Below, piece by piece: positions 25,233 through 41,226 of a stretch of 64,000 nt of DNA; positions within the stretch are counted from its first letter, which is position 1, and each line of letters begins with the position of its first letter. The position numbers were made by a program, and so were the translations under genes. Under the pieces are notes generated by a model. That model was not told the DNA's origin. It made no database searches and saw nothing but the letters and a program-made list of their open reading frames with translations. This stretch comes from Bacteroidales bacterium (GTDB lineage Bacteria > Bacteroidota > Bacteroidia > Bacteroidales > WCHB1-69), in NCBI GenBank assembly GCA_024400835.1, contig JAKSMC010000015.1:1859-65858 (forward strand), given 5' to 3'.

Positions 25233-25308
25233 GTAGAGACGGTGCGCGACGCATCGGTAGAGACGGTGTGCGACGCGTTTGTAGAGACGGTGTGCACACC
25301 GTCTCTAC
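25233..25308. repeat. REP array: two half-REP units (24-bp period) plus perfect palindrome GTAGAGACGGTGTGCACACCGTCTCTAC (25281-25308)
   Basis: GTAGAGACG at 25233, 25257 and 25281. Confidence 0.92.
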
Positions 25309-25446
25309 GGTGGATCATCGAAAAATTCCACGTTTGTAAAAACGTCATCCAACCGCCATTTGTTTTTTAATCATTAATATTTGTTAAATATTTGTTTTGT
25401 TTAAATTAAAAAAAACATTATATTTGCAATCAGAAAACAAAATAAT

Positions 25447-26145
25447 ATGTCAGACGATAAATTCATAAACAAATACCGTATTCCATCGGCCCGTGCGCCC
25501 TGGCACGGATATGATGGCGGGGCATATTTCGTCACGATATGCACGCAACAACGGAAACATTATTTCGGGGAAATTGGGAAACAAATATTATGCGACGCAT
25601 CGGTAGAGACGGTGCGCGACGCATCGGTAGAGACGGTGTGCACACCGTCTCTACGGCAGGGCGAACCGCAAATGCAATTATCCCCCATCGGGAAATACGC
25701 CCACGAACAATTTGCGAATGTCACCGAACATTATCCATACGCCGAAATCCCGTTGTTCGTCATAATGCCCAACCATATCCACGCCGTGGTGTTGGTGGAT
25801 GGAAAATGTTGGGAATCAAATAAAAATCCCCCGATGAAATGCAAAGACGGCGTCCCGAAATGTAGAGACGGTGTGCACACCGTCTCTACAAACGCGGCAC
25901 GATGGAAATCATTCATTGTTAATAAATCAATGCAAAACATTTCACGACAAAAAGGGCCATTATCCGTCATTATTGGCGGTCTGAAACGGTCAATCACGCG
26001 TTACGCAAATGAACACCACATCCCATTCGCCTGGCAAACCCGTTTCCACGATCATATCATCCGCAATCAGGATGAAATGAACCGCATTGCGTTGTACATT
26101 GAACAAAATGTCGCGAAATGGGACGAGGATGAATTTGCGAAATAA
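25447..26145 (+). CDS. REP-associated tyrosine transposase (RAYT/TnpA-REP, Y1 HUH family) no. 1
   Basis: YRIPSAR..W.Y..G.YFVTICT, MPNHIH (HUH), WQTRFHDHIIR, catalytic YI..N. Surrounded by GTAG palindromes; no tnpB. Confidence 0.9.
   Translation: MSDDKFINKYRIPSARAPWHGYDGGAYFVTICTQQRKHYFGEIGKQILCDASVETVRDASVETVCTPSLRQGEPQMQLSPIGKYAHEQFANVTEHYPYAEIPLFVIMPNHIHAVVLVDGKCWESNKNPPMKCKDGVPKCRDGVHTVSTNAARWKSFIVNKSMQNISRQKGPLSVIIGGLKRSITRYANEHHIPFAWQTRFHDHIIRNQDEMNRIALYIEQNVAKWDEDEFAK
25591..25654. repeat. In-frame REP array inside RAYT1 (full REP 25627-25654)
   Basis: Encodes CDASVETVRDASVETVCTPSL; near-identical to the upstream array. Confidence 0.92.
25841..25890. repeat. In-frame REP inside RAYT1 (25862-25889) with degenerate half copy 21 bp upstream
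   Basis: Encodes CKDGVPKCRDGVHTVST, downstream of the HUH motif. Confidence 0.9.
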
Positions 26146-26179
26146 TGCAGGGACGTGACGGACAATTGCGGCGACGGAC

Positions 26180-26229
26180 GATTGGGGATTGTAGAGACGC
26201 GGTGCACCACGTCTCTACAATCCCCAATC
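26180..26229. repeat. REP (26191-26218, centre CGGTGCACCA) with 11-bp extended inverted arms
   Basis: GATTGGGGATT-REP-AATCCCCAATC between convergent genes. Confidence 0.9.
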
Positions 26230-26247
26230 AACCACGCCCCCTATACA

Positions 26248-26874
26248 TTACAACCACCGTGCCACGCATCTAAACCCATAACGGGTTTCGGTCGTTTCCG
26301 TCGGCAGCGTGAAAATCAGCCATTGCAAACAATTGTCGCAATCCCCTGCTGTAGAGACGGTGTGCACACCGTCTCTACAACCACAATGCACACCGTCTCT
26401 ACCATCATTGTTTTGGATGGTAAAAAAATTGTCCGCATTCTGTTCCGAATTCCATTCCCGCAATTTCAGCTGCACCAGCATATATTCCGCCACGCGGTCG
26501 GTGCGCCAGCAGCAGTAGGCGCGGGCCTGCTCGGGGTTCACCCCAAACACAGGGAAGTGCCTATATGCTGGATTCGTCAGATAAGCCGTCGGTTCGGTAA
26601 ACGAGACCTGCTGGCGAATGATGTTCGTGTCGGGCATAGCGGCGAGGTATTCGGGAGACTCCTTGCCGTAAATTTGCGCCAACCAGAACTGGTATTCCAT
26701 CCAATCGATCACGAGGATGTCATCTTTATCGTAATAAATGGAATCCGCAACCATTTGCATATTCACGCCAGCCGGGACCTTCTTCTGGTAATTCTTCAGG
26801 GTTAGGTGCTGCGCCGAAAGCGTCAAGTTGCCAGCAAACAGCAACAACATCAAAAAGGGGGAACATTTCATCAT
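26248..26874 (-). CDS. Secreted FGE-sulfatase/SUMF1 (GldK-like) domain protein with in-frame REP
   Basis: Signal peptide; FPVFGVNPEQARAYCCWRT, TLPTE and YGFRCV motifs. Confidence 0.65.
   Translation of the reverse strand: MMKCSPFLMLLLFAGNLTLSAQHLTLKNYQKKVPAGVNMQMVADSIYYDKDDILVIDWMEYQFWLAQIYGKESPEYLAAMPDTNIIRQQVSFTEPTAYLTNPAYRHFPVFGVNPEQARAYCCWRTDRVAEYMLVQLKLREWNSEQNADNFFTIQNNDGRDGVHCGCRDGVHTVSTAGDCDNCLQWLIFTLPTETTETRYGFRCVARWL
26350..26402. repeat. In-frame REP (26351-26378) plus half copy (26387-26402, 24-bp period)
   Basis: Encodes GRDGVHCGCRDGVHTVST on the minus strand. Confidence 0.92.
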
Positions 26875-27084
26875 AGCCACAAAATTTCAGTTCACAGATC
26901 ACTATTCACTAATATTTAAACGTAAAAAAGGAAGGAAATCTTGGGGCAATTGACAGAAACTGTCAAAAACACATTGATTTTAGGATAATTGCACAAAGAT
27001 AGCGATTAATTGCTATTTTTGCGCTGTTTTTTGCCAATTATGAAATTGAAATTGTAAAACAGGCGCCGGTTGTCGTACGGCGCA

Positions 27085-27118
27085 ATCGTAGAGACGGTGT
27101 GCACACCGTCTCTACGAT
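27085..27118. repeat. REP palindrome upstream of hsdM (core 27088-27115)
   Basis: ATC-GTAGAGACGGTGTGCACACCGTCTCTAC-GAT, a perfect 34-bp palindrome. Confidence 0.92.
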
Positions 27119-27174
27119 GGGAAACGACGAAAAAACGAGGTTTTAATGCCCTATTTTAATTAAAACACAAAGGA

Positions 27175-28788
27175 ATGGCTAAAAAAATCATACAACCCAA
27201 AAGTATGGAAGAGGCGCTGTGGGAAGCGTGCAATAAGCTCCGCGGTTCCATTGAAAGTTCAGAATACAAACACGTGGTGCTCAGCTTAATATTCTTGAAA
27301 TATGCCGGCGATCATTTCGAAAAGCGCCGTCAGGAAATTGTGGCGGAAGGACACGAGGCCTTCGACGACAACGTGGCTTTCTATGCCGCCAAGAACGTGT
27401 TCTACCTGGCGCCCGAGAGCCGTTGGGACTACATTATGGAAAACGCCAAGCAGCCCGACATCGCGCTGAAAATCGACAAGGCGCTGTCGGAAGTGGAACG
27501 GCAGAACAAGCAGTTGAAAGGCGCGCTGCCCAACAACTACTACGCCAATCTCGGTCTCGACACTTCCAAATTGGCATCCCTCTTGGATGAAGTGAACAAA
27601 ATCGACACGCTCAAGGACGAAGAGAACGACCTTATCGGACGCGTTTATGAATATTTCTTGGGGAAATTCGCCATTGCGGAAGGCAAGGGCAAGGGGGAAT
27701 TCTACACGCCTAAGTGCATTGTAAACCTTATCGCCGAAATGATTGAGCCGTACGAAGGCAAGATTTACGACCCTTGCTGCGGTTCGGGCGGTATGTTCGT
27801 GCAGTCGCTCAAGTTCATCTCCGCGCACCACGGAAACCGCAAGAACGTCTCCATTTACGGACAGGAATACACCAAGACCACCTACAAGCTGGCGAAGATG
27901 AACCTCGCCATCCGTGGCATCGCCTCCAACTTGGGCGAGAGCGAGGCCGACACTTTCCGCAACGACCAGCACCGCGACCTGAAGGCCGACTACATCATGG
28001 CCAATCCGCCGTTCAACCAGAAGGCGTGGCGCGAGGAAAGCGAGCTGACCAACGACCCGCGCTGGGCGGGCTATGACGTGCCACCCACCAGCAACGCCAA
28101 CTACGGCTGGATTCTGAATATGGTGTCAAAGCTGAGCTGCGACGGCGTGGCAGGCTTCATTCTGGCCAACGGGGCGTTGAGCGCCGACGGCACCGAGTAC
28201 GCCATCCGCAAGAAGATGCTGGAACGCGGACTGGTGGAAGCCATCCTCATTCTGCCCCGCAACCTATTCTACACCACCGACATCAGCGTAACGCTGTGGA
28301 TTCTGAACAACAACAAGAAAGCCCGCGTGGCCAACCGCAACGGCGAAGAGGTGCATTACCGCGACCGCGAAAAGGAGGTGCTGTTCATGGACCTGCGCCA
28401 GATGGGTTCGCCATACGAAAAGAAATACGTGCAATTGACGGCCGACGACATTGCCCGTGTGGCACGCACCTACCATACCTGGCAACGCATTCCCTGTAGG
28501 GACGCGGTGCAATGTGGAGACGCGGTGCACCACGTCTCCACAGACAATACCGGCAATTACCACAATATCCCCGAATATTGTTATTCCGCCACCTTCGATG
28601 AAATTGCGGAGAAAAATTTCTCGCTGGTGCCCAGCAAATACATCGAATTCGTGAACCGCGATGAGCAGATCGATTTCGACAGCAAGATGAAACAGTTGCA
28701 AAGCGAAATGAAGGAACTGCTGGCGGAAGAGGAAAAATCGAAGAAAGAACTGAAGGAATTGTTCGAGAAATTGGGATATAAAATTTGA
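27175..28788 (+). CDS. hsdM: Type I RM methyltransferase subunit M
   Basis: GEFYTP, YDPCCGSGGMF (motif I), ANPPF (motif IV). Confidence 0.95.
   Translation: MAKKIIQPKSMEEALWEACNKLRGSIESSEYKHVVLSLIFLKYAGDHFEKRRQEIVAEGHEAFDDNVAFYAAKNVFYLAPESRWDYIMENAKQPDIALKIDKALSEVERQNKQLKGALPNNYYANLGLDTSKLASLLDEVNKIDTLKDEENDLIGRVYEYFLGKFAIAEGKGKGEFYTPKCIVNLIAEMIEPYEGKIYDPCCGSGGMFVQSLKFISAHHGNRKNVSIYGQEYTKTTYKLAKMNLAIRGIASNLGESEADTFRNDQHRDLKADYIMANPPFNQKAWREESELTNDPRWAGYDVPPTSNANYGWILNMVSKLSCDGVAGFILANGALSADGTEYAIRKKMLERGLVEAILILPRNLFYTTDISVTLWILNNNKKARVANRNGEEVHYRDREKEVLFMDLRQMGSPYEKKYVQLTADDIARVARTYHTWQRIPCRDAVQCGDAVHHVSTDNTGNYHNIPEYCYSATFDEIAEKNFSLVPSKYIEFVNRDEQIDFDSKMKQLQSEMKELLAEEEKSKKELKELFEKLGYKI
28495..28542. 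repeat. In-frame variant REP inside hsdM (28514-28541) plus half copy (18-bp period)
   Basis: GTGGAGACGCGGTGCACCACGTCTCCAC; encodes CRDAVQCGDAVHHVST. Confidence 0.88.
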
Positions 28789-28825
28789 TAATTCTTGCTA
28801 ATTGTTGCAAAATTAGCAAGAATTT
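28786..28825. repeat. 40-bp direct repeat copy 1 containing a 14-7-14 palindrome
   Basis: TGATAATTCTTGCTAATTGTTGCAAAATTAGCAAGAATTT, identical to 30154-30193. Confidence 0.92.
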
Positions 28826-28851
28826 TATATCTTTGCCGAAAATTTTTAAAG

Positions 28852-30156
28852 ATGATAGAACGCGCACCAAAGATTGAAAAAAAGGTTCTTAATGATGCCT
28901 TAATGGGAATCAGCAGTCCTGAAATCGAGGCGTTGGTTGATAAAATCAACGACACCTACGAATATTGGGACAAGGTGAAATACAAAGACACCACATCGTT
29001 GGGTATTTCGGCAGAAACTTTATGGAGCCACGTCAAGATTTCGCGTATGAAATCTTGGATTGTGGTATGGAAAAGATACGGAATCCGGCTTGGAGTCACG
29101 AATCAAATGCAGCGCTTATGTCACGAATTTGATATGCTGTTTGGCAGTTTTTGGGAGACAGACGATTCATCCGCCAAGGAGAAGACGTATTATCTGGCCA
29201 GCTCGTTGATGGAAGAGGCCATCTTTTCCAGCAAAATGGAAGGGGCTTCCACCACGCGCCTTAAAGCCAAAGAGATGTTAAAGAAGAACATCTCGCCCAA
29301 GAACAAGTCGCAGCAGATGATTGTGAACAATTATCGTACGATTCAATACATTTCCGAACGTAAAAACGAACCGCTGACGGAAGAAGGCTTGCGGTACATT
29401 CATCAATTGATGACCGAAAACACCTTGGAAAACGCTCACGATGCAGGTCGCTTTAGAACTCAAGAGGATAATGTGGTAGTTGAAGAGGGCATCAGCCACG
29501 AGGTGGTGCACACGCCGCCGCCAGCAGAAGATTTGCCAGATTTCGTTAAAGATTTATGCGTCTTTTTCAACACTAACGACGAAACGAAGTTCATCCATCC
29601 CATCATCAAAGGCATTGTCATTCACTTTATGATTGCCTATATGCATCCTTTTGTAGATGGCAACGGACGTACGGCAAGGGCGCTTTTCTATTGGTATATG
29701 TTGAAGGAGAAATACTGGCTGACGGAATATATGTCCATTTCCAGAATTATTGCGGAATCTAAAAGGTCGTATGAGAAGTCGTTTTTGTACACGGAGTGTG
29801 ACGACAAGGACCTCGGATATTTCGTAACCTATAATCTAAGGGCGCTGCAGCTGTCGTTTGAGCAGTTGAAACAATATATAGAACGTAAGCAGAATGAGAA
29901 AAAAGCCGCCAACGCGTTTATTATGATTGGCGGAATCAATGAGCGGCAGGCGCAAATCATACACTATTTCCAAACCAATCCGGATGCGGTGGTGACAGTA
30001 AAGGAAATGCAAGACAGGTTTATCATCACACAAATGACGGCAAGAAGGGATTTGACCGAACTGGTTGAAAATGGCTATCTTAAAGAGGTGGCCATCAACA
30101 AGGTAAAGCGAGGATATTTAAGAAGCGAGGAATTTGAAGATAAATTTAAAAAATGA
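28852..30156 (+). CDS. Fic-domain protein with C-terminal HTH
   Basis: Canonical HPFVDGNGRTAR; SSKMEG inhibitory-helix-like motif; C-terminal TARRDLTEL HTH. Confidence 0.9.
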   Translation: MIERAPKIEKKVLNDALMGISSPEIEALVDKINDTYEYWDKVKYKDTTSLGISAETLWSHVKISRMKSWIVVWKRYGIRLGVTNQMQRLCHEFDMLFGSFWETDDSSAKEKTYYLASSLMEEAIFSSKMEGASTTRLKAKEMLKKNISPKNKSQQMIVNNYRTIQYISERKNEPLTEEGLRYIHQLMTENTLENAHDAGRFRTQEDNVVVEEGISHEVVHTPPPAEDLPDFVKDLCVFFNTNDETKFIHPIIKGIVIHFMIAYMHPFVDGNGRTARALFYWYMLKEKYWLTEYMSISRIIAESKRSYEKSFLYTECDDKDLGYFVTYNLRALQLSFEQLKQYIERKQNEKKAANAFIMIGGINERQAQIIHYFQTNPDAVVTVKEMQDRFIITQMTARRDLTELVENGYLKEVAINKVKRGYLRSEEFEDKFKK

Positions 30157-30193: not shown

Positions 30194-30209
30194 GCCAATA
30201 TTCATCCTT

Positions 30210-30264
30210 GTAGAGACGTGGCGCAATTTAACGATTGTAGAGACGTTGCGCGCAACGTCTCTAC
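30210..30264. repeat. REP (30237-30264, centre TTGCGCGCAA) plus half copy 27 bp upstream
   Basis: Perfect 28-bp palindrome read directly. Confidence 0.92.
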
Positions 30265-30379
30265 CGACAACCGAAACAAACAAAAACATTCCAATTTTGC
30301 AAACATTGGAAAGAATTGATGAGACAACACGAATGACGAAATTGGCTGTTAACCTAACAATTTGAGACAATTAAAAACG

Positions 30380-31450
30380 ATGGACAATACATTTGAAGAA
30401 TACATACGCCAAGGCGAACCCGACAAATCGCAACGAGCCGAAAACTGGCAGATTGCCATTGGCTTGCAGGATGTGGATGGCTTGAAACCCTCCGCATACT
30501 TGCTCGAAACGGCACAAAAGCACATCGAGGGAGAGCTTACGATGGAAGACGTTAAACAGTGCATTAACGACTATTACCAAACGCAAGACGGCAAGGCTTT
30601 GCTTGCAGAGCGAACCGATGAAGCCGACAAGGTTTCTGCCAACATTGCCGATTTGCTTGCTGAACAGACCTTTTCGTTAGCACCGACGGAATATGCACGC
30701 ATCCATCGTCGGGTGTTTGCAGGCGTGTTTCCGCACGCTGGAGAATATCGTTCATACAATATCACCAAAAACGAATGGGTGCTTGATGGCGACACCGTTA
30801 CTTACGCGCCCTACGAGATGTTGCAGGAGACCGTGGAATTCGACTTTTCGCAGGAAAAGCAATTCAGTTATAAAGGATTGTCGCAACAGGAATCCATTGC
30901 GCACGTCTGCAAATTCATAGCAGGACTTTGGCAGATTCATCCGTTTGCGGAGGGAAACACTCGAACCATGGCAGTTTTTACCATAAAATATCTCAAGAAA
31001 TTTGGTTTTTCCGTAAACAACGATGCTTTCAAGCAGCATGCGTGGTACTTTCGCAATGCGTTGGTGCGTGCCAATTACAACAATCTGCAAAAAGGAATTG
31101 CGGAAACAACCCTATACTTGGAACGATTTTTTGAAAATCTGCTTTTTGGTGGAACCTACGAATTGAAAAACCGTCATTGCCATATACGCTGGAGCGAAGG
31201 CGATGGGCAAAGTGCAAACGGCAGCGATTCAAAGAGCAAAATTTGCACTTTGAATTGCACTTTAGAAGAGACGGCGGTGTTGAATTTCCTGAAAGAAACG
31301 CCCGAAGCAACGCAGAAGCAGATTGCCGAAGCAATTGGAAAATCGGAGCGAACGGTAAAAACCATCACCGTATCGTTGCAACAAAAAGGAAAATTAGCAC
31401 GCAAAAATGGAAAACGTAATGGAACTTGGCAAGTAATAGACAATGAATAA
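30380..31450 (+). CDS. Fic-domain protein (VbhA-like N-terminus, C-terminal wHTH)
   Basis: HPFAEGNTRT Fic motif; AIGLQDVDGL N-terminal segment; ATQKQIAEAIGKSERTVK HTH. Confidence 0.88.
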   Translation: MDNTFEEYIRQGEPDKSQRAENWQIAIGLQDVDGLKPSAYLLETAQKHIEGELTMEDVKQCINDYYQTQDGKALLAERTDEADKVSANIADLLAEQTFSLAPTEYARIHRRVFAGVFPHAGEYRSYNITKNEWVLDGDTVTYAPYEMLQETVEFDFSQEKQFSYKGLSQQESIAHVCKFIAGLWQIHPFAEGNTRTMAVFTIKYLKKFGFSVNNDAFKQHAWYFRNALVRANYNNLQKGIAETTLYLERFFENLLFGGTYELKNRHCHIRWSEGDGQSANGSDSKSKICTLNCTLEETAVLNFLKETPEATQKQIAEAIGKSERTVKTITVSLQQKGKLARKNGKRNGTWQVIDNE

Positions 31451-31538
31451 CACCACCACCACATACAAACCCCTCGGCGACTACATCCGCCCCGTTGACG
31501 TTCGCAACAAAGATTTGAGAAATTCTTTTGGTAATTAG
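31443..31538 (+). pseudogene. 5' relic of hsdS (31 codons)
   Basis: MNNTTTTYKPLGDYIRPVDVRNKDL vs intact HsdS MTKPNTTYKPLGDYIRPVDIRNRDL. 31457-31518 matches 32658-32719 with 6 mismatches by my count. Confidence 0.85.
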
Positions 31539-31564
31539 GAAATAAAACAAAAAGTACAACGACT

Positions 31565-32635
31565 ATGACAGACTTGATACAATATGCAGATTGGCTAAAA
31601 AGCGTAAAGCTCAGGATTCGGCAAAGCCAGATAAAGGCGGCCGTAAAAGTCAACAATGAACTTTTGCGGTTGTACTGGTCGTTGGGGAAAGAAATTGTTG
31701 AATTGCAGAAATCATCTCAGTGGGGCGATTCTTTCCTGCAAAAACTCAGCAAGGATTTAGCCACCGAATTTTCTGACATGAAGGGTTTTTCATATAGGAA
31801 CCTGAAAAGCATCCGACAATGGTATCTATTTTATAGCCAATACGATGCGTTTGGGCAACAATTTGTTTCCCAAATTGCCGAAGGAAATGGGCAGCAATCT
31901 GTTTCCCTATTTGAGCACATCTTTTTTTCAGTGCCATGGGGACATCATCTATACATTATACAAAAGTGCAAAGAGGGGGCCAAGGCAATGTTTTACCTAA
32001 AGAAAACTGTTGAAAATGGGTGGTCGCGTGCAGTTCTGGCTAATTTTTTGGATACAAATCTGTATGAACGGGAAGGCAAGGCCATAACGAATTTTCAACA
32101 AGCACTGCCTCTGGCACAAAGCGATTTGGCCGAACAAACGATAAAGGATCCATATAATTTTGATTTTCTTACATTAACAAAGCCCTTCAACGAAAAGGAA
32201 TTGGAAAACGCATTGATTGATAATGTGACGAAATTCCTGATTGAATTGGGCAAAGGATTTGCGTATGTGGGACGTCAGATTCATTTTGATGTCGGGGGCG
32301 AAACATTCATGCCCGATTTATTGTTCTATCATTTGGATTTGCGATGTTTTGTGGTGATAGAATTGAAAGTCACCGACTTTGACCCTTCCTATTTGGGGCA
32401 GCTCAATTTTTATGTGAATATGATCAACCATCAGATGAAAAAAGAGGTGGACGCACCGACCATAGGACTACTCATCTGCAAAAGCAAGAATGACATAATT
32501 GCAAAATATGCCCTTGAAGGATACAGTCAGCCATTGGGCATATCCCAATTTGAAATGTCGAAGATGATGCCGGATAATTTCAAATCGTCGCTTCCTACCA
32601 TCGAAGAAATAGAATCTGAACTTTCAAAAATATAA
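31565..32635 (+). CDS. YhcG / DUF1016 PD-(D/E)xK nuclease-domain protein
   Basis: LYWSLGKEI, KDPYNFDFL, ELGKGFAYVGRQ, DLLFYH..VVIELK and GQLNFY motifs. Confidence 0.92.
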   Translation: MTDLIQYADWLKSVKLRIRQSQIKAAVKVNNELLRLYWSLGKEIVELQKSSQWGDSFLQKLSKDLATEFSDMKGFSYRNLKSIRQWYLFYSQYDAFGQQFVSQIAEGNGQQSVSLFEHIFFSVPWGHHLYIIQKCKEGAKAMFYLKKTVENGWSRAVLANFLDTNLYEREGKAITNFQQALPLAQSDLAEQTIKDPYNFDFLTLTKPFNEKELENALIDNVTKFLIELGKGFAYVGRQIHFDVGGETFMPDLLFYHLDLRCFVVIELKVTDFDPSYLGQLNFYVNMINHQMKKEVDAPTIGLLICKSKNDIIAKYALEGYSQPLGISQFEMSKMMPDNFKSSLPTIEEIESELSKI

Positions 32636-32643
32636 CGACACGA

Positions 32644-33753
32644 ATGACCAAACCAAACACCACATACAAACCCCTCGGCGATTACATCCGCCCCGTTGAC
32701 ATCCGCAACCGCGATTTGAAGGTGACGACGTTGTTAGGACTGAGCATTGAAAAATGTTTCATTCCGTCCATTGCCAACACCATTGGCACGGATATGTCCA
32801 CCTACAAGGTTGTAATGCCGGGACAATTTGCATACGGTCCCGTAACCTCGCGCAACGGCGACAAGATAACCATTGCGTTATACACAGGCGACGAACCTGC
32901 CATCATTTCACAGGCGTACGTTGTTTTTGAAATCGTTGACCGCGAACAATTGTTGCCCGAATATTTGATGATGTGGTTCCGCCGGCCCGAATTTGATCGG
33001 TATGCGCGATACCATTCGCACGGCAGTGCGCGCGAGATTTTCGACTGGGCGGAGATGTGTGCCACAATGGTTCCCGTTCCTCCGATTTCGGAGCAGCGGG
33101 CGGTAGTGGCAGACTACGAGGCGGTGGCGCGGCGCATAGCGGTAGCCAAGCGCACGATAGCCACCCTGCAAACCACCGCGCAAACCCTGTACCGCAAGAT
33201 GTTTGTTGACGGCATCGACAAAGAGAACCTGCCGGAAGGATGGCGGTGGGGGACGCTGGGTGAGGTGTGCGAAGTGAAAGCTGGTGGCGATGCACCTGCT
33301 ATTGTAATAGAGGAAAGGACGTCAGATTGTCCTTATCCAATCTATGCAAATGGCTTTGAAAAAGATGGTTTGTATGGTTTTACAAATGCCCCTAAAATTA
33401 CAAAACCAAGTTTTACAATTTCAGCAAGAGGCACAATTGGTTATTGTTGCATTAGAAAAGAGCCGTATGTCCCAATTGTTAGGTTAATTGTTGTTATACC
33501 GAATGATGCAAAAATGTTGAATTATTTTGCGATTCATTTTCAAACGACAAAAATTGAAGGCGACGGATCTGTTCAAGGTCAGTTAACCGTGCCGAATGTT
33601 GAAGCATATAAAATAGCAATTCCACCAATGTTATTGCTGCAGTCTTTCAACAAGCAATACGACGTTGTTAGTAAAGGTGTGGAATTGCATTCAAAAGAAA
33701 TTGAGAAATTAACGGAAATACAAACGATAATACTCTCCGGGCTGGGGAGGTAA
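32644..33753 (+). CDS. hsdS: Type I RM specificity subunit S
   Basis: Two TRDs with conserved PVPPISEQ and LPEGWRWGTLGEV spacers. Confidence 0.9.
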   Translation: MTKPNTTYKPLGDYIRPVDIRNRDLKVTTLLGLSIEKCFIPSIANTIGTDMSTYKVVMPGQFAYGPVTSRNGDKITIALYTGDEPAIISQAYVVFEIVDREQLLPEYLMMWFRRPEFDRYARYHSHGSAREIFDWAEMCATMVPVPPISEQRAVVADYEAVARRIAVAKRTIATLQTTAQTLYRKMFVDGIDKENLPEGWRWGTLGEVCEVKAGGDAPAIVIEERTSDCPYPIYANGFEKDGLYGFTNAPKITKPSFTISARGTIGYCCIRKEPYVPIVRLIVVIPNDAKMLNYFAIHFQTTKIEGDGSVQGQLTVPNVEAYKIAIPPMLLLQSFNKQYDVVSKGVELHSKEIEKLTEIQTIILSGLGR

Positions 33754-33770
33754 GAAGGGAGTGATAATAG

Positions 33771-36700
33771 ATGAAAAACGAAGAAAAAGGAATCAAATTT
33801 CCTAGATTTATCAGCAATTCGCCTTGCAAAGAAGATTTATTCAAAGGTAATTCTCATAAAAACATTGCTGAGAACATAGCTCAACTTCTGCAAAACAATG
33901 AGAACTGCAATGTCATAGGCATTGATGGCGGTTGGGGATCTGGAAAATCCAATTTGGTAGAACTAGTGAAAAAATGTCTAGATGTTAATGAAAAGACAAA
34001 AGGAAAGTTCAGATTTTTCCTTTATGATGCATGGGGCCATCAAGACGATTTACAGCGTCGCTCTATTTTAGAGGAACTAACCGAATATTTAACAAAGGGA
34101 AATGAGAAGGAAACGGGAATTTTAGGTTCTGATAAATGGAAAGAAAAACTAAAAGAATTATTAGCGAAGCAACGAGAAGTTAAGACAAAAACTATTCCTA
34201 AAATCAGTTTAGGAATTATTCTGTCAGTATTAGCAGTAGTGATAACACCAGTATTAGAGATTATTACTGATTCAATAGAATCCACGATATGGAAGATCAT
34301 TATTAGGAGTCTCCCGATAGCTTTATTCTTGTTCTTAGTGATTTATTATATCATAAGAAATCTTATGAATTCCAAAGGAAATGGAGTGTGGAATTGTATA
34401 AAATCATCTATGACTGATCTTTTTTATATCTATTCAGATAGACAGAAAGAAGACACTACGTTTGAGACTATTTCAGAAGACGAACCATCATCACGGAAAT
34501 TCAAAGATTGGATGCACGATATTGATAAGGACATTCATGGATATACGCTAATGGTCGTATTTGACAATATGGATCGGCTTCCAAGTCGAAAAGTCCAAGA
34601 ATTATGGTCTGCAATACATACTTTTTTTGCGGATGAAAGTTATGAAAACATTCGTGTAATAGTGCCGTTTGATAGAGAACATATTAAATTTGCATTTAAA
34701 AACGAAGATATTGCTGATAGTAATAAATCTCAAGTCAATGGGTATAAAGTAAAGAGCTTCGGAGATGACTATATAAACAAAACATTTAATGTGGTGTATC
34801 GCGTATCACCTCCAACGATGTCGAATTGGAAAGAATATTTTCAAATGCAGTGGGAATATGCATTTGGCAATGATGGCTGTGTGGACAATTCAGTTACACA
34901 AATATATGATTTGTTGACGCCAGATCAAACGCCTCGTAAAATCATAGCGTTTATTAATGAGTTTGTTACCATAAAGCAGTTAACGGAAGGAGACAATATT
35001 CCAGACAAATACATCGCTTTATTCATTTTAGGGAAAAGCAAAATAACTAACAATCCTAATGAAATACTTACTCCTTCTTATTTAGGACCTTTAGGATTTA
35101 TGTATAAAGATGATGAAAATTTGCCCAAATACATTTCCGCATTATATTATCAATTATCTGCCAATGAGGCAATAGACATTATATACACAGCTAAATTGAA
35201 AAGGGCTTTGGACGAAAATGACACGGAACAAATAAAATCTATCCAAAGTAATCCGACAGTGTTCTACTCCATATTGGAAAATGCAATCACACAGGTTACA
35301 AATATTCCTAATGCTACATTGGCACTTCATATTTGCTTGGCAAACGAAGCGAACGCTAAAACAAGAAGAATATGGGATTGTGTGTATTGTAATGAAAAGA
35401 AGACCGTTGTCAAGGAATATTTACAAGAATATCAAAAAATATTAATTGGGAACATTACACAGAAGGATGAATATTTACATACATTGATAAATGCGTTCTA
35501 TTATATTCAGGATTTTGATGTTAATAAATATTGTGATAGTATTCGTCAATTATCCGAAATAGAAGGAATAGACCCTTTTACTTATTTGTCTGAGAAAGAA
35601 GTCGAGGCCGATACTTTTATAAAGTTTGTAGAACATACCAAAGATACTTTTAGGCAATATAAAATCGTTTGCGGACAAGAAAAAATTAATGCATATTTTT
35701 CCGGATTGAATGTCGATATGTTAAGTACTTTGTCTATTATCCCAATTTTGAGAAGTGACTATGATTTAACAGCGTATTCTGACCATCTTAAATCCTTGAT
35801 TGATGAAAATCTTAATAATAAGGGAAGAATTGAAACAATTTATTCGCGTTTAAAAGAAGTAGAAAAGCCTATTACAAAGATACTTCCAGACACTCAGATT
35901 CACTCGTTTTTCACTTCAACAAATGATTCGGAAGATTTTTATTATGATTTGATTTGTATGAGGATGTCACGGCTGACGAACTTCCACCCAAATTTCCAAA
36001 GGTTTTTCAATCAAGTGTTAAGTTCTTCAGATTCTATTTTGGTAAAAAAAATCGCAGATAGAATAGGGTATTATATTTCTTATGGAGATATCCTTATAAA
36101 TGTTGGGAATATGAATTCTCAACTTTTCAATAATGTTGCAAAGATGCTCACCGAAAAAGGAAATGATTTGTCTTCCATTGACATTGTTGCAATTCTTCAG
36201 AAATATGAAACTATCAAAACTAATTTGTCTGTTGATAAAACAGTCTTGTTTAACCGTTTAGATGAATTATGCGAAGGTGATACATTATCAAATGTAACCA
36301 TTGATGAGTTTCCAACAATTCCTATTGCTTTTTTCGAGGACATTAATAGCGTTGAAAACAATCTGAAAAAACATTGTTATTCATTAGCTGAGGAATATTT
36401 GAACGCTAAATCAAAAGATCAATGGAAACAGTCAATAGTTGATATTGACTTTGATTTCAAATTGCTAAAGATTGTCAAGGCAAAAGTTCAAAATTGTTTT
36501 GATGCTTTTAAAGAGGCGCTTATTGATAAGGCCAAAGGGGAAATTAGTAATTTGACAAAGGAGACGGTTAAATTTCTAATTGAACTATCTGAAAAGAACA
36601 ATAGAGAATTATTATCTGCATTTAATAATGTTAGAGATGTTTTCTGTAACGGAAATGTCGCAATGACAGTTGAATTGTTTGATTTTTATGGAGAATGGCT

Positions 36701-36983
36701 GCTGAAATATTCAAAATTAGAAGAAAAATCAGCTTCGCTAAGAACCATTTTTATTCCGTCTGTTTTGGATAAACAAGAGAATGTTCAATTAATTCTGAAA
36801 TATCAAACAAAGATGATTAATATCGTTAATATTGCTGGAAAGGAAAATACTGACTTTAAAGATAAACTGGAGTCATTATTGAAAGATCACAAAAACGATG
36901 ACCAATTAAAGGAATTTGCGAGTAAAATAGGTATTAAATTGAATTTTCTTGATAAAATTAAAGATGCACTTGATGCTAAATGA
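33771..36983 (+). CDS. KAP-family P-loop NTPase
   Basis: GGWGSGKS Walker A, YDAWGH, two inserted TM helices, VVFDNMDRL Walker B, TPRKI. Strongly AT-rich. Confidence 0.85.
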   Translation: MKNEEKGIKFPRFISNSPCKEDLFKGNSHKNIAENIAQLLQNNENCNVIGIDGGWGSGKSNLVELVKKCLDVNEKTKGKFRFFLYDAWGHQDDLQRRSILEELTEYLTKGNEKETGILGSDKWKEKLKELLAKQREVKTKTIPKISLGIILSVLAVVITPVLEIITDSIESTIWKIIIRSLPIALFLFLVIYYIIRNLMNSKGNGVWNCIKSSMTDLFYIYSDRQKEDTTFETISEDEPSSRKFKDWMHDIDKDIHGYTLMVVFDNMDRLPSRKVQELWSAIHTFFADESYENIRVIVPFDREHIKFAFKNEDIADSNKSQVNGYKVKSFGDDYINKTFNVVYRVSPPTMSNWKEYFQMQWEYAFGNDGCVDNSVTQIYDLLTPDQTPRKIIAFINEFVTIKQLTEGDNIPDKYIALFILGKSKITNNPNEILTPSYLGPLGFMYKDDENLPKYISALYYQLSANEAIDIIYTAKLKRALDENDTEQIKSIQSNPTVFYSILENAITQVTNIPNATLALHICLANEANAKTRRIWDCVYCNEKKTVVKEYLQEYQKILIGNITQKDEYLHTLINAFYYIQDFDVNKYCDSIRQLSEIEGIDPFTYLSEKEVEADTFIKFVEHTKDTFRQYKIVCGQEKINAYFSGLNVDMLSTLSIIPILRSDYDLTAYSDHLKSLIDENLNNKGRIETIYSRLKEVEKPITKILPDTQIHSFFTSTNDSEDFYYDLICMRMSRLTNFHPNFQRFFNQVLSSSDSILVKKIADRIGYYISYGDILINVGNMNSQLFNNVAKMLTEKGNDLSSIDIVAILQKYETIKTNLSVDKTVLFNRLDELCEGDTLSNVTIDEFPTIPIAFFEDINSVENNLKKHCYSLAEEYLNAKSKDQWKQSIVDIDFDFKLLKIVKAKVQNCFDAFKEALIDKAKGEISNLTKETVKFLIELSEKNNRELLSAFNNVRDVFCNGNVAMTVELFDFYGEWLLKYSKLEEKSASLRTIFIPSVLDKQENVQLILKYQTKMINIVNIAGKENTDFKDKLESLLKDHKNDDQLKEFASKIGIKLNFLDKIKDALDAK

Positions 36984-37082
36984 CAAATATGCTAGTGCAG
37001 ATTTTTTTGCTCCAAATATAATATACAAATTACAGATTTACGTCACATATACCAATCCATCCCCTCTAAACACCCCAAATCT

Positions 37083-37190: not shown

Positions 37191-37232
37191 CGCATCAATC
37201 ACGGCGGTGACAAATTTGCGGATATGCATGAT

Positions 37233-37351
37233 GGTTGTGGCGTGGGATTTGGTTGTGACGCATGGTATTGTTGTGACGTACGGTTCGGTTGTGGCGCACG
37301 GTCCGGTTGCGACGCACGGCCGTGTAGAGACGCACGGCCGTGCGTCTCTAC
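37233..37351. repeat. 18-bp degenerate tandem array ending in REP GTAGAGACGCACGGCCGTGCGTCTCTAC (37324-37351)
   Basis: Units start at 37233, 37251, 37269, 37287, 37305 and 37323. Confidence 0.9.
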
Positions 37352-37473
37352 GATGTTGCGGAAAACAAACGATATCGCGGAAAACCCAAACATATTGGTG
37401 GCCGTGAATGATTTTCCAATTCCCAATGTCGTTCAATTGTTCCTGTTTTAACGAAAAATGAAAAAACAATAAA

Positions 37474-38034
37474 ATGCCTGAGAAATTCAAAAACAGATAC
37501 AGAATCCCATCGAATCGGTTGCGCGGATGGAATTATGCCCGAAACGGACATTATTTCATCACTATCGTGACATACGGACGGGAACACCGTTTCGGGGAAA
37601 TTGTGGATGGCCAAATGGTTCTGAACGAAATCGGCAAAATCGTTTACGATGAATTTTTCAAATCGTTTGAAATACGCGAGGAATTGTTTCTGGGCGAATT
37701 TGTATTGATGCCCAATCATTTGCACGCCATCGTCATTTTGGATAAAAACGGATGTGAATTGGACGTAAAAACACCAACGCAATTATACCGCGAACCCCAA
37801 TCGATTTCGTCGTTCGTGGCGGGTTTCAAATCGGCGGCAATAAATAAAATCGACGATTGGATGGCTGAAAATAACCGTTCCATGAAAAAATTCAACAAAA
37901 CCAATCCGTTGTGGCAGGCGAATTACCATGACCACATTATCCGGAACGAACAGGAATACATAAGAATTTCCGAATATATTGTCCATAATCCCGAAAATTG
38001 GGAAGAGGACACATTGAAATCAGATAATCAATAA
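37474..38034 (+). CDS. REP-associated tyrosine transposase (RAYT) no. 2
   Basis: YRIPSNRL.GWNY..NG.YFITIVT, MPNHLH, WQANYHDHIIRN, YIVHNP. Confidence 0.9.
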   Translation: MPEKFKNRYRIPSNRLRGWNYARNGHYFITIVTYGREHRFGEIVDGQMVLNEIGKIVYDEFFKSFEIREELFLGEFVLMPNHLHAIVILDKNGCELDVKTPTQLYREPQSISSFVAGFKSAAINKIDDWMAENNRSMKKFNKTNPLWQANYHDHIIRNEQEYIRISEYIVHNPENWEEDTLKSDNQ

Positions 38035-38046
38035 AACCACAATATC

Positions 38047-41000
38047 ATGCCCTTTACCGAATCCCATTTAGAATCCGCCATCATCGAATTGTTCCAACAA
38101 CAGGAATACGATTACGTGCACGGGGATAACGTGGTGCGGAATACAACGGACGTCATATTGTACACCGACCTGCGCACATTCCTGCAACGCCGTTACCAGC
38201 ACGACGGCATCACCGCCAACGAAATCGAAACGGCTATCGGGCAGCTGACGGCTGCGGCAGGTTCGTCGCTGTACGAGGACAACGCACACACCCTCCGCCT
38301 GCTGATGGACGGTTTCACCATCAAACGCGAAGACAGCAGTCGGCCTAACCTCTTCATCAATCCCATCGATTACGATTTTCCCGAAAACAACATCTTTAAG
38401 GTGGTCAACCAGTTTGAGGTGCAGGGTGACGAAAAACGCATCCCCGACCTGGTGGTTTTCGTCAATGGCATTCCCGTGGTGGTGTTAGAATTTAAAAGCG
38501 CCATCAAGGAGGAGACCACGATTATGGATGCCTACAAGCAGCTGACGGTCCGTTACCAGCGCGACATCCCGTTGCTGTTCAAATACAACGCCTTCGTGGT
38601 CATCAGCGACGGCGTGAACAACAAGTTCGGTTCGCTGTTCGCGGATTATGAATTTTTCTATGCCTGGCGCAAGGTAGAACAGAACGACCGCAGCACCGAC
38701 GGCATAAACTCGCTTTACACGATGCTACAGGGACTTTTCCGCAAGGAACGCCTGTTAGAGGTGATACACAACTTCATCTTCCTGCCCGACACGCCCAAAG
38801 GACAAATGAAAATCGTGTGCCGCTATCCGCAGTATTTTGCAGCCACGGCACTCTATCAGAATATCTTACAGCATTCGCATCAGAACGGCGGCGATGGCAA
38901 GGGCGGCACCTACTTCGGCGCCACCGGCTGCGGCAAGAGCTTCACCATGCTCTTCCTCGCCCGCCTGCTGATGAAAAGCCGCGAGCTGCATAGCCCGACC
39001 ATCCTTTTCATCACCGACCGCACCGATTTGGACGACCAACTCTCCAAACAGGTGCTGAATGCCCGCTGCTTCATCGGCGACGACACCATAAAACAGGTGG
39101 AAAGTCGCGACCAACTGAAGAAACTGCTGCAAGGCCGCACCAGCGGCGGCGTCTTCCTCACCACCATCCAGAAGTTCTCGGAAGATATCAGTCTGCTGTC
39201 GGAGCGCGCCAACATCGTATGCATCAGCGACGAAGCCCACCGCAGTCAGACGGGCCTGGGAATGAAGCTGCGCCTCACCGATGACGGCATCCGCCGCGCA
39301 TACGGCTTCGCCAAATATCTGCACGACAGTCTGCCCAACGCCACCTACGTCGGCTTCACCGGCACGCCCATCGACGCCACCGTCGATGTCTTCGGTCCCG
39401 TGGTGGATGCCTACATGATGTCGGAATCCGTGGCCGACGGCATCACCCGCAAAATCGTCTATGAAGGTCGCGCCTCGAAGGTGATTCTGGATGCCGAGAA
39501 GGTGAAGGAAATTGAAGAATACTACAACCGCTGCGCCGACGAGGGCAGCACCGAATACCAGATTGAGGAGAGCAAGAAGGCGATGACGCGCCTCGATGTC
39601 ATCCTCAGCGACCCCGACCTGCTGATGCGCATCGCCGAAGACTTTGTGGAACATTACGAGCGACGCGTGGAAGAAGGTTCTACCGTGAAAGGCAAGGCGA
39701 TGATTGTCTGCTCCACGCGGCAGATCGCCTACTATCTGTACCAAAACATTATCAAACTGCGTCCCGAATGGGCGGAGGTGAAGGCCTGCTGCGAGGGCGA
39801 GGCACTCTCCGAGCAGGAAAAGAAAACCGTGCTACCCATCGAGCGCGTGAAAATGGTGGTGACCCGCGACAAGAACGACCCGAAAGAACTGTACGACCTA
39901 TTAGGCAGCAACGACTACCGCAAGCAATTGGACGAGCAGTTCAAGGAGGAAAAAAGCAATTTCAAGATTGCCATCGTGGTGGATATGTGGATTACCGGCT
40001 TCGACGTGCCAGCATTGGACACGATGTACTGCTTCAAGCCGCTGCAGCGTCACACGCTCATCCAGACCATCTCGCGCGTTAACCGCGTATATCCCGGCAA
40101 AGACAAGGGTCTGGTGGTCGATTACCTCGGCATCAAGAACAACCTGAACCTTGCCCTGAAGCAATACGGCGGCCAAGGCGACCTGCCGCTGACCTCCTTG
40201 GAAACCATCGAGCAGTCGGTGAAACTGACCAAGGACGAGCTGGACATTCTGCGGCGGATGTTCCACACCTTCGACTTCTCGGCCTACTACACCGGCAAGC
40301 CGTTGGAGCAGTTGGACTGCCTGAACCGCGCCGCCGAGTTCGTGCAGCAAACCAAGGATACGGAAACGCAATTTATGGGCCACACGCGGAAGATGCGCTG
40401 CGCCTACAACATCTGCTGCAACAGCGACCAACTGAGCACGCGGGAAATTGACGACATTCACTTCTTTATGGCCGTACGTTCCATTATCTTCAAGCTCACG
40501 CGAGGCACAGCCGCCGATACCGCCTCGATGAACAAACACGTAGCCGACCTTATCCGTGACGCCCTCATCTCCGAGCAAGTGGAGGAAATCACCAAAATAG
40601 GAGCCAAAGAGGATGAACTCGACCTTTTCTCCGAGCAATATATGGAACGGCTCAACCGTCTGAAACTACCCAACACCAAGGTAAAGCTGATGGAACGTTT
40701 GCTTCGCCAGGTCATCGACCACCTGCAGAAAGTCAACAAGGCCAAAGGTATTGATTTCTCCCAGCGGTTGGAGGCCATTGTCAAGAACTACAACGACCGC
40801 AGCGACAACACCACGTTAGCCAACGAAGTCATCGACGAGGTAGTGTCGCAGATGACCGAACTGTTGGTTGAAATCAACCACGACAAGCAGCAGTCAGAGG
40901 AGATGGGCATCAGCTATGAGGAGAAATCCTTCTACGACATTTTGATGCTGGTGGCGAAAAAGTACAACTTCGAGTATCCTGAAGATAAAGCCATTGCGCT

Positions 41001-41202
41001 GGCCAAGGAGATCAAGATTATCGTAGATGACAAAGCCAAATACACTGACTGGTCACGCCGTGAGGACATCAAAGCCGAGCTAAAGATGAATCTGATTCTC
41101 GTGCTGTCGGAATACGGCTATCCGCCCTTCGTCAACGACGAGGTTTTCAAGGAAATCTTGGAACAGGCGGAGAATTTCAAGAAAAACGAACCTAACCCGT
41201 AG
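38047..41202 (+). CDS. hsdR: Type I restriction enzyme R subunit (DUF3387 C-terminus)
   Basis: RIPD..VNGIPVVVLEFK, ATGCGKS, DEAH, FTGTP, MWITGFD, QTISRVNR. Confidence 0.95.
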   Translation: MPFTESHLESAIIELFQQQEYDYVHGDNVVRNTTDVILYTDLRTFLQRRYQHDGITANEIETAIGQLTAAAGSSLYEDNAHTLRLLMDGFTIKREDSSRPNLFINPIDYDFPENNIFKVVNQFEVQGDEKRIPDLVVFVNGIPVVVLEFKSAIKEETTIMDAYKQLTVRYQRDIPLLFKYNAFVVISDGVNNKFGSLFADYEFFYAWRKVEQNDRSTDGINSLYTMLQGLFRKERLLEVIHNFIFLPDTPKGQMKIVCRYPQYFAATALYQNILQHSHQNGGDGKGGTYFGATGCGKSFTMLFLARLLMKSRELHSPTILFITDRTDLDDQLSKQVLNARCFIGDDTIKQVESRDQLKKLLQGRTSGGVFLTTIQKFSEDISLLSERANIVCISDEAHRSQTGLGMKLRLTDDGIRRAYGFAKYLHDSLPNATYVGFTGTPIDATVDVFGPVVDAYMMSESVADGITRKIVYEGRASKVILDAEKVKEIEEYYNRCADEGSTEYQIEESKKAMTRLDVILSDPDLLMRIAEDFVEHYERRVEEGSTVKGKAMIVCSTRQIAYYLYQNIIKLRPEWAEVKACCEGEALSEQEKKTVLPIERVKMVVTRDKNDPKELYDLLGSNDYRKQLDEQFKEEKSNFKIAIVVDMWITGFDVPALDTMYCFKPLQRHTLIQTISRVNRVYPGKDKGLVVDYLGIKNNLNLALKQYGGQGDLPLTSLETIEQSVKLTKDELDILRRMFHTFDFSAYYTGKPLEQLDCLNRAAEFVQQTKDTETQFMGHTRKMRCAYNICCNSDQLSTREIDDIHFFMAVRSIIFKLTRGTAADTASMNKHVADLIRDALISEQVEEITKIGAKEDELDLFSEQYMERLNRLKLPNTKVKLMERLLRQVIDHLQKVNKAKGIDFSQRLEAIVKNYNDRSDNTTLANEVIDEVVSQMTELLVEINHDKQQSEEMGISYEEKSFYDILMLVAKKYNFEYPEDKAIALAKEIKIIVDDKAKYTDWSRREDIKAELKMNLILVLSEYGYPPFVNDEVFKEILEQAENFKKNEPNP

Positions 41203-41226
41203 AGACGTTGCGCGCAACGTCTCTAC
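41199..41226. repeat. REP (centre TTGCGCGCAA) overlapping the hsdR stop codon
   Basis: TAG 41200-41202 is the TAG of GTAG; identical to 30237-30264. Confidence 0.92.

Follow-up and report, generated by a model that had tools for sequence, protein, structure and literature searches.

Our data indicate that a 64-kb stretch of a Bacteroidales genome (hereafter the window; positions 1859-65858 of contig G000:C7, from the 3.0-Mb assembly G000, which comprises 60 contigs and is 98% complete) most probably carries two REPtrons within a mosaic defense island. By a REPtron we mean a gene for a REP-associated tyrosine transposase (RAYT, also termed TnpAREP) together with its cognate repetitive extragenic palindromic (REP) hairpins, which here are of the double-foot kind (GTAG at the 5' end and CTAC at the 3' end). 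The REPs belong to a family found throughout the genus, and we propose, with a probability of roughly 0.8, that they cluster in this island because it is where the genome's only two RAYT genes are encoded. To judge by its protein family matches, the island consists of a ProA/Hhe helicase gene and a type I restriction-modification (RM) operon with Fic, YhcG, and KAP cassettes. REPs accumulate next to the RAYT genes and, in frame, within them, and each RAYT clade has its own REP center types. The few REPs in hsd genes occur only where they keep the reading frame (a loop of HsdM) or at a gene end (the hsdR stop codon).

REP palindromes and RAYT genes of the window

Nine exact matches to GTAGAGACG-N10-CGTCTCTAC are present in the window (at 25281, 25627, 25862, 26191, 26351, 27088, 30237, 37324, and 41199), and 100 dinucleotide-preserving shuffles yielded 0.00 matches. 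Allowing up to three mismatches added a palindrome at 28514 (GTGG...CCAC, two mismatches) and a half-arm at 25257; even at this tolerance, no REP was found in the other 48 kb of the window. These ten palindromes are the ones listed in a sequence-only reading of this DNA made earlier by a model, and its counts of the center types (GTGTGCACAC five times, CGGTGCACCA and TTGCGCGCAA twice each, and CACGGCCGTG once) and its placement of the copies at gene junctions or in frame were reproduced as well. Both feet (5' GT[AG]G and 3' C[TC]AC) are present in all ten, and each of the four center types corresponds to a DNA hairpin of 12-14 bp (-12 to -14.5 kcal/mol; z of -5.0 to -6.9 relative to shuffled controls). 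Four of the ten are intragenic, with 25627 and 25862 located in the RAYT1 gene, 28514 in hsdM, and 26351 in the 3' tail of a GldJ-like open reading frame (ORF). At 41199, the hsdR stop codon is the TAG within the GTAG of the REP. The remaining palindromes are intergenic, and no T run follows any of the window REPs.

A feature missed in the sequence-only reading is that most palindromes are accompanied by tandem copies of one arm, numbering from one to about five. The period of these copies is either 24 nt (25231-25295, 25592-25638, and 26351-26402) or 18 nt (about five decaying units at 37233-37342), and single half arms occur at 28490 and 30210. In the fold of the array upstream of RAYT1, the right arm is able to pair with either left arm. 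Each REP arm also contains GAGACG/CGTCTC, which we take to be the recognition site of the type IIS enzyme pair BsmBI/Esp3I; these hexamers (e.g., at 25284-25289) number 455 and 456 copies in the genome.

Based on their sequence motifs and, for RAYT1, a modeled fold, we assign both ORFs to the RAYT family, as the sequence-only reading had done. The HUH motif, WQ, and the catalytic tyrosine (NHIH, WQ, and YIEQNV in RAYT1; NHLH, WQ, and YIVHNP in RAYT2) are invariant across a 40-sequence alignment that includes RAYT2, whose catalytic tyrosine region can be aligned to structure 4er8. The two proteins share 31% identity. An AlphaFold model of RAYT1 (mean predicted local distance difference test [pLDDT] score of 77, with the core above 90) retrieved E. 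coli TnpAREP bound to its REP (4er8) as the rank 1 Foldseek match (E 1.6e-4, probability 1.00), followed by the TnpA proteins of IS608 and ISDra2. The TM-scores against 4er8 reach only 0.35/0.48, at ~15% sequence identity, because RAYT1 carries inserts. A tblastn search of the 98%-complete assembly revealed no third RAYT, so both RAYT genes of this genome lie in the span described here. REPs flank RAYT1 on both sides and RAYT2 on its upstream side, and the RAYT2 stop codon is separated from the hsdR start by 12 nt.

The REP-coded parts of RAYT1 differ in their predicted structure. The 28-aa insert before the HUH motif, which is found neither in RAYT2 nor in the homologues of relatives (whose alignments break up near aa 46 and 74), was modeled as an extended beta-hairpin (pLDDT 70-84), and the loop at aa 125-165, which holds the REP at 25862, was modeled as disordered (pLDDT 41-56). 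Such peptides are widespread. Using RAYT1 as the query, we found a REP peptide (VET...SL or RD...VST) in 100 of the 120 best database homologues, a proportion biased by the REPs within the query itself; the REP-free RAYT2 query yielded one in 108 of its 120 best homologues. The insertions fall at two hot spots and one rarer site: the loop between HUH and WQ (88 out of 120 proteins in the RAYT1 set and 106 out of 120 in the RAYT2 set), the region before HUH (40 and 1, respectively), and the C-terminus (7 and 0).

Peptides were assigned to center types by translating the four REP types of the window. In the RAYT2 set, each of the 109 REP peptides proved to be of the CACGGCCGTG type, i.e., the type found upstream of RAYT2 (103 read VETHGRASL, 4 represent the other frame of identical DNA, and 2 are one-letter variants). 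None of the 139 peptides in the RAYT1 set was of this type, the main ones being the TTGCGCGCAA (48) and GTGTGCACAC (31) types. The suggestion that each RAYT may have a cognate REP type therefore holds at the level of clades, and the three other center types of the window go with the RAYT1 clade. Since protein databases reveal the center type directly and this type strictly follows the RAYT clade, these data provide a ready specificity hypothesis for biochemical work.

By analogy with the TnpAREP enzymes of E. coli, Stenotrophomonas, and Marinomonas, the HUH-Tyr enzyme would bind the GTAG-footed hairpin on single-stranded DNA, cut at a dinucleotide beside the hairpin via a 5'-phosphotyrosine link, and rejoin the strands. 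Copies would be seeded preferentially near the enzyme's own gene, and aberrant strand transfer, or else slippage at the hairpin, may have left the tandem half-arm arrays behind as by-products. Only copies that are in frame or intergenic would then be retained by selection.

Several findings weigh against our proposal. The REPs at 28514, 30237, and 41199 are located 2.4-4.1 kb from the nearest RAYT gene end, and at the RAYT loci of 40 relatives (7-kb flanks) nearly all REPs lie within ~300 nt of the gene, with only three more than 1 kb away; a spread in cis over several kilobases is therefore an assumption of our proposal. The corresponding island of the related genome G013 contains three REPs in 6.4 kb (binomial P 1e-4; genome total of 44), and no RAYT was found in this 90%-complete assembly using RAYT1 as the sole query. 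Likewise, one of the six REPs of genome G015 occupies the HsdM loop, and the RAYT1 query found no RAYT there. These two genomes hint that the RM island itself may attract or retain REPs. Profile scores also fall below the cut-offs: NCBIfam REP_Tyr_transpos (NF047646, cut-off 80) gave 55.1 bits for RAYT1 (E 8e-15) and 69.9 bits for RAYT2 (E 2e-19), Pfam Y1_Tnp (PF01797) scored 19.8 for RAYT2 against a cut-off of 23, and RAYT1 had no match to the latter model. We attribute these low scores to divergence and to the inserts. Finally, the activity of subclass 2.4 RAYTs, the subclass that both proteins appear to fit, is predicted from other RAYT groups.

REP distribution and turnover in the genome and genus

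Genome-wide, the search pattern of the sequence-only reading matched 15 copies, 10 of them in the island. Allowing centers of N9-12 brought in two more, giving a low total of 17 full copies in the genome, 7 of them outside the span and on other contigs, and the looser pattern GAGACG-N8-12-CGTCTC matched 33 copies on 17 contigs. Thus, 10 of the 17 full copies are found in 16 kb (0.53%) of the 3.0-Mb genome (binomial P ~3e-19), so the local excess is well founded. The further claim that the REPs are confined to the island is true within the window but fails for the genome, in which the seven other full copies all stand beside housekeeping genes. We scanned the 14 ORFs flanking these seven copies and obtained Pfam matches for 11 and none for 3, with no recognized defense family among the matches. 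The neighbors include a lipoate ligase gene (lplA) and the CdaA gene (cdaA), an extracytoplasmic function sigma factor, a type IX secretion system cargo protein beside a dicarboxylate symporter, an asparaginyl/lysyl-type tRNA synthetase (asnS) with sigma-54 (rpoN), NamZ, a tetratricopeptide repeat protein, and an AAA_14-DUF4143 ATPase.

Nor are the REPs a general feature of defense loci in this genome. It has at least six other RM loci (on contigs C20, C45, C54, C13, and C10 and at the start of C7), and these six lack full, loose, and half REPs, which speaks against the REPs being specific to defense genes. Copy numbers across 55 genomes of the genus range from 0 to 244, with 50 genomes carrying the family, and the REPs are spread over many contigs in the five relatives whose positions were listed. 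It is hardly credible that the arrangement in the window arose by chance or as an assembly artefact. G000 is a 60-contig draft, and short-read contigs break at REPs, so copies elsewhere may be undercounted. However, besides the empty shuffles mentioned above, control patterns gave no match in any of the 55 genomes, the same arrangement recurs in the independent assemblies G022 and G071, and every full REP of this genome is more than 400 nt away from the nearest contig end.

When the intergenic site between asnS and rpoN was compared across 30 genomes of the genus, a full REP was seen in G000, G013, and G024, with identical arms and three different centers, and a decayed REP in one further genome. 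In the remaining genomes, the site holds a different hairpin with GTAG/GTAA feet, a GC hairpin of the ordinary terminator kind with a T run behind it, or no such element. This pattern suggests that REPs and terminators may take interchangeable positions.

We compared the island with its counterparts in four related genomes, whose hsdM genes are ~88% (G022 and G013) or ~70% (G015 and G007) identical to that of G000. The sharing of REP sites could mean that the island was imported from a REP-rich donor, with its REPs inherited rather than made locally. Indeed, G013 has REPs at the same sites in hsdM and after the first Fic gene (Fic1), and G022 does so upstream of hsdM, where a decayed REP is found at the 27088 site, and upstream of RAYT2, where the REP is the same. 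The GC mosaic of the island (0.33-0.55), the ~88% identity of the G013 and G022 hsdM genes, and the 44 REPs of the G013 genome are also consistent with such an import. Against it, the centers at shared sites differ in spite of flanks that are ~95% alike, the REP after Fic1 in G013 having the center type that dominates the G013 genome, so the REPs have been exchanged or converted at their sites. Most of the six copies surrounding RAYT1 are of the type coded inside RAYT1, which fits local production, and centers have turned over at the housekeeping site asnS-rpoN in three species as well. We therefore consider inheritance from a donor very improbable. That orthologous REP sites keep their arms and swap their centers between species, in the RM island as well as at a housekeeping site, points to replacement or conversion in place.

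RAYT genes and type I RM loci

The sequence-only reading proposed that RAYT and REPs act as a local remodeling system for the defense locus rather than as genome-wide repeats. This proposal is not supported, given the occurrence of the family in 50 of 55 genomes and the seven housekeeping-flanked copies in this one. In its stronger form, i.e., that RAYT and REPs are a dedicated device for remodeling or diversifying the type I RM or defense island, we regard it as distinctly unlikely, but a number of observations are in its favor. Of the ten copies in the genome that are not adjacent to a RAYT gene, three still lie within the 14-kb RM span (P ~1e-5). The HsdM loop holds a REP in three of the five islands (G000, G013, and G015) and is empty in G022 and G007. 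G000 and G013 carry composites of a half plus a full REP in the RD...VST frame, with different centers, and G015 carries a single REP in the VET...SL frame; since two reading frames are used in one loop, at least two independent insertions must have occurred. The C-terminus and stop codon of hsdR differ between islands exactly at the REP; the G013 gene ends in a stop codon of its own, and the junction there contains a decayed REP together with 395 nt of other sequence. The array upstream of RAYT2 is 36 nt shorter in G022, and the G022 orthologue of RAYT2 has gained an extra in-frame REP with a half arm inside the gene. Moreover, metagenome contigs at least 90% alike include hsdM alleles without the insert, although those with 90-95% likeness may belong to related species. 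As a separate observation, an in-frame TAG shortly precedes the REP insert in the G013 hsdM gene (G013:C12, about 1000-1010 of L020), for which a pseudogene or an error of assembly could be the reason.

The large differences between islands argue against such a device. The second Fic gene (Fic2) and YhcG are missing from G013 and from some metagenome contigs, with breakpoints at ~30320 and 32632-32644 that lie 55-77 nt from the nearest REP, and the gap between hsdS and hsdR holds KAP in G000, HNH/AbiH/Abi_alpha in G022, and GmrSD/AbiH/AAA_21/RloB in G007. Contrary to the expectation that indel breakpoints would map to REPs, the presence or absence of Fic2 and YhcG and the swaps of KAP have their boundaries in direct repeats of the hsdM and hsdS ends and not in REPs. 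Since the cargo of this gap varies, RAYT may be one more tolerated passenger in it. The device is further contradicted by the REP-free state of the six other RM loci, by the scatter of REPs over many contigs in the listed relatives and beside housekeeping genes here, and by the absence of RAYTs from PADLOC.

Candidate REP-to-REP joints (26220 to 41198, 30261 to 41198/41199, and others like them) were rejected as deletions; their shorter side comprises 26-27 letters and is attributable to other REP copies or assembly breaks. Coverage of the KAP region in four runs was nil or of a depth below 1.3 per bin, from which no inference was drawn, and the depth of the RNA-library contigs over hsdM was not accepted as proof of transcription.

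Nine RAYT loci from relatives had no island genes within their 1.4-kb flanks, which are too short to settle the matter. Flanks of 7 kb were therefore taken at 40 loci of relatives, and 200 RAYT loci with 7-8-kb flanks were sampled in all (40 from relatives, 80 from species-representative genomes, and 80 from metagenomes). The metagenome loci were obtained by a scan with alignment A1; a scan with RAYT1 only gave 67 pattern matches and no confirmed relative. An HsdM-like gene was found near RAYT in 3 of the 40 relatives' loci and in 6 of the 80 loci from species-representative genomes (8 of 80 for any island-protein homologue), and hsd genes were found at 7 of the 80 metagenome loci. Collectively, type I RM genes adjoin RAYT at 16 of 200 loci, always on the same strand. 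In half of these 16, RAYT lies directly upstream of hsdR (gap of 26 to ~1250 nt), usually with hsdM/hsdS further upstream, and in another five it lies directly upstream of an HsdM-like methyltransferase gene. The RM-adjacent RAYTs share 28-70% identity with one another and therefore represent many lineages. In the first two samples, nine adjacencies were seen versus 1.8 expected (~5-fold, P ~1e-4), the expectation being derived from the density of N6_Mtase (150 matches in ~122 Mb of the 40 relatives). It is good to an order of magnitude only, given that Pfam hidden Markov model (HMM) counts in genomes are set against tblastn searches of the flanks with one HsdM.

The adjacency and its excess also favor a remodeling device, and the 184 of 200 sampled loci without an hsd gene in their flanks stand against it. 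The RM association noted in the sequence-only reading is thus borne out in part: it recurs at 16 loci and is accompanied by a REP in the HsdM loop of three of five islands, but most RAYT loci do without hsd genes. The locus in G071 repeats the finding in full, with hsdM, hsdS, a RAYT 63% identical to RAYT1, hsdR, and then a partial second RAYT. Of the 19 REPs of that genome, 10 occur within 7.3 kb at the RAYT-hsdR locus, including in-frame copies in hsdS and hsdR.

One tentative and rather unlikely interpretation is that Bacteroidota RAYTs of this subclass are recurrent and stereotyped residents of type I RM operons, perhaps functionally so and not just as tolerated cargo. They would occupy the stretch between hsdM/hsdS and hsdR on the strand of these genes, with the hsdR start often only tens of bases away. 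Possible reasons are that RAYT may be coexpressed with hsdR, that an addictive RM system may stabilize RAYT, or that the insertion and turnover of REPs may supply variation to hsd genes (the HsdM loop, and hsdS and hsdR in G071). A literature search, which covered the accessible text of the key papers, found no paper tying RAYTs to type I RM systems and none for TnpAREP with hsdR. If the association were more than hitchhiking, it would tie a supposedly domesticated single-strand transposase to restriction systems, a link that we did not find in print. Under our proposal of two REPtrons in a mosaic island, the recurrence of RAYT at one position of the type I RM operon and the collection of in-frame REPs by hsd genes are still puzzling and mildly interesting.

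Genes of the defense island and comparison with known systems

The features of the island are listed in Table 1. The type I RM genes hsdM, hsdS, and hsdR occur together, and their frames are all open. Except for the RAYTs, each span gene scanned (the GldJ-like ORF was left out) matched a defense or candidate-defense family of PADLOC, so "defense island" is a fair label.

Table 1. Features of the REPtron-bearing defense island (window coordinates)
Feature	Position	Strand	Evidence or remark
ProA/Hhe-type anti-phage helicase; left neighbor, outside the REP system	19794..25103	-	NCBIfam ProA 1814 bits (cut-off 1500); PADLOC PDC-S37, Hhe
Two left-arm half copies (25233, 25257; 24-nt period) and full REP 25281-25308, center GTGTGCACAC; upstream of RAYT1	25233..25308	.	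Pattern and repeat analysis
RAYT1, 232 aa; HUH = H110-I-H112, WQ 196-197, Tyr217	25447..26145	+	Alignment, NCBIfam, AlphaFold, fold match
In-frame REP composite in RAYT1 (24-nt tandem half-arm and full REP 25627)	25592..25654	.	28-aa insert after "FGEI", before HUH
In-frame REP in RAYT1 loop after HUH, peptide RDGVHTVST	25862..25889	.	Translation
REP, center CGGTGCACCA, flanking palindrome 7 nt longer; downstream of RAYT1	26191..26218	.	Pattern, fold
GldJ-like ORF, 210 aa; C-terminal tail REP-coded	26248..26880	-	Weak NCBIfam GldJ match at aa 42-153; translation
Full REP (GTGTGCACAC) with right arm duplicated 24 nt on	26351..26402	.	Pattern, repeat analysis
REP (GTGTGCACAC) 60 nt upstream of hsdM	27088..27115	.	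Pattern
hsdM (type I methyltransferase)	27175..28788	+	Pfam N6_Mtase, HsdM_N; PADLOC MTase_I
Half arm and full REP (GTGG...CCAC, center CGGTGCACCA), in frame in HsdM loop	28490..28541	.	Pattern, comparison
Fic1: Fic-helix-turn-helix (Fic-HTH) gene, SoFic-like; cassette between 50-nt direct repeats	28795..30156	+	Pfam, PADLOC, direct-repeat family D4
Both Fic-HTH genes together	28795-31450	+	Pfam, PADLOC
Half arm and full REP (center TTGCGCGCAA) between the Fic genes	30210..30264	.	Pattern
Fic2 (Fic-HTH, PDC-S72) and YhcG/DUF1016 PDDEXK nuclease (PDC-S02)	30362..32635	+	Pfam, PADLOC
YhcG-type PDDEXK nuclease	31565-32635	+	Pfam, PADLOC
hsdS	32644..33753	+	Pfam; PADLOC Specificity_I
KAP-family NTPase, low-GC cassette	33771..36983	+	Pfam, PADLOC, GC profile
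About five decaying 18-nt half-arm units, then full REP 37324-37351, center CACGGCCGTG	37233..37351	.	Repeat analysis
RAYT2, 186 aa, without internal REP	37474..38034	+	Pfam, NCBIfam, alignment
hsdR (type I restriction subunit)	38047..41202	+	Pfam; PADLOC REase_I 1155 bits
REP (TTGCGCGCAA) at hsdR end	41199..41226	.	Pattern, translation

Further features were noted in and around the cassettes. Two 50-nt direct repeats (28776-28825 and 30144-30193; 94% alike, each with a 14-bp inverted repeat) overlap the hsdM and Fic1 stop codons, respectively, and the same sequence follows Fic1 in G013; Fic1 therefore looks to have been inserted as a cassette by duplication of the hsdM 3' end. A 77-nt direct repeat of the hsdS 5' end (31442-31518 and 32643-32719, 84% alike) flanks the YhcG gene. 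The KAP NTPase cassette (34000-38000) has a GC content of 0.33-0.37 compared with ~0.49 around it, and its NTPase matches PifA/QatA-like PADLOC models weakly, at the P-loop end. Upstream of RAYT2, an ORF of 122 aa (37083-37451) with no Pfam family runs straight into the REP half-arm array. Its start (37083-37200), which includes an "IPEIQRPFVW" stretch, resembles the N-terminus of the full-length GmrSD in the G007 island in a single weak pairwise match (24 residues, E 0.001), and the RAYT2 REPtron could have replaced most of a GmrSD gene, leaving this remnant. A second type I RM locus, which is free of REPs, is located at the contig start (G000:C7:8-4696; up to ~2840 in the window), ~20 kb upstream, with three Methylase_S matches and a ResIII/hsdR match. 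Finally, three tandem 33-nt units (41510-41608, 73% alike; family D7) lie upstream of an ORF that starts at 41603.

In type I RM loci, the gap between hsdS and hsdR is known to hold restriction-linked ORFs, as in the "rlo" genes of Campylobacter. The islands analyzed here are similar in that this gap contains varied accessory and defense genes, and they differ in having a RAYT as a gap resident, which we did not find in print.

As to the RAYTs themselves, both appear to fit subclass 2.4 of TnpAREP, an assignment based on shared features. According to the accessible parts of Quentin et al. 2018 (PMC6006769), this subclass occurs in Cyanobacteria and Bacteroidetes, its double-foot REPs flank the gene and also lie in frame between the HuH motif and the catalytic tyrosine, and these in-frame copies fall in a variable domain with short repeats. 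Subclass 2.4, which equals RAYT group 4 of Bertels, resembles our system in its Bacteroidetes host, its REPs with 5' GT[AG]G and 3' C[TC]AC feet, its WQ motif, and its variable insertion domain. An in-frame REP between HuH and the tyrosine is found in RAYT1 (25862) and in the G022 orthologue of RAYT2 and is absent from RAYT2 of the window. The motifs given for the subclass are NH[IFV]H, WQ, and YIxNNP (PMC6006769); the NHLH of RAYT2 is closer to the motif that the accessible text gives for subclass 2.6. Our system departs from that text in two respects. A second insertion hot spot precedes HUH, both in our system and in 40 out of the 120 RAYT1 homologues, and the genes lie within a type I RM operon, a context not mentioned in the portion of the description available.

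For group 3 and E. coli-type RAYTs, the GTAG foot is described as a guide or recognition element, and single-stranded DNA is cut and rejoined beside the hairpin (PMC8266576, from the part accessible). The TnpAREP of the E. coli REP/bacterial interspersed mosaic elements (group 2, 4er8) and the group 3 REPtrons of Stenotrophomonas and Marinomonas share with our system the HUH-Tyr fold and a REP-flanked gene. Their hairpins, however, are bulged and arranged in inverted pairs, whereas each REP of our system is a perfect 28-nt palindrome bearing a foot at either end, and REPs are here also found inside the RAYT gene.

The effects of REPs on genes have precedents as well. The accessible text of Di Nocera et al. 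2013 (PMC3733652) describes GTAG REPs whose TAG serves as the stop codon of a flanking ORF, in-frame insertions of REPs or Rickettsia palindromic elements in genes, many of them for DNA-handling proteins, and different REPs at about one position of homologous genes (recB of two Xanthomonas species). In our system, the genes that carry such REPs are hsdM and, in G071, hsdS and hsdR as well; hsd genes may already be included in the list of decorated genes in that paper. Another parallel is the TnpAREP located beside prochlorosin genes in marine picocyanobacteria (Laurenceau et al., bioRxiv 10.1101/2020.03.09.984088, as far as its text was accessible), in which a RAYT is likewise colocated with one hypervariable cluster and has been proposed as a local diversifier. 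The cargo there is lanthipeptides and not RM genes, and a later note by the same authors states that the evidence on causation is not strong either way (bioRxiv 10.1101/2020.03.09.984088). REPs beside and in frame within RAYT genes, as well as TAG stops derived from REPs, are thus of kinds already published, and the main value of the locus is as a clean example of a published but little-studied type of REPtron.

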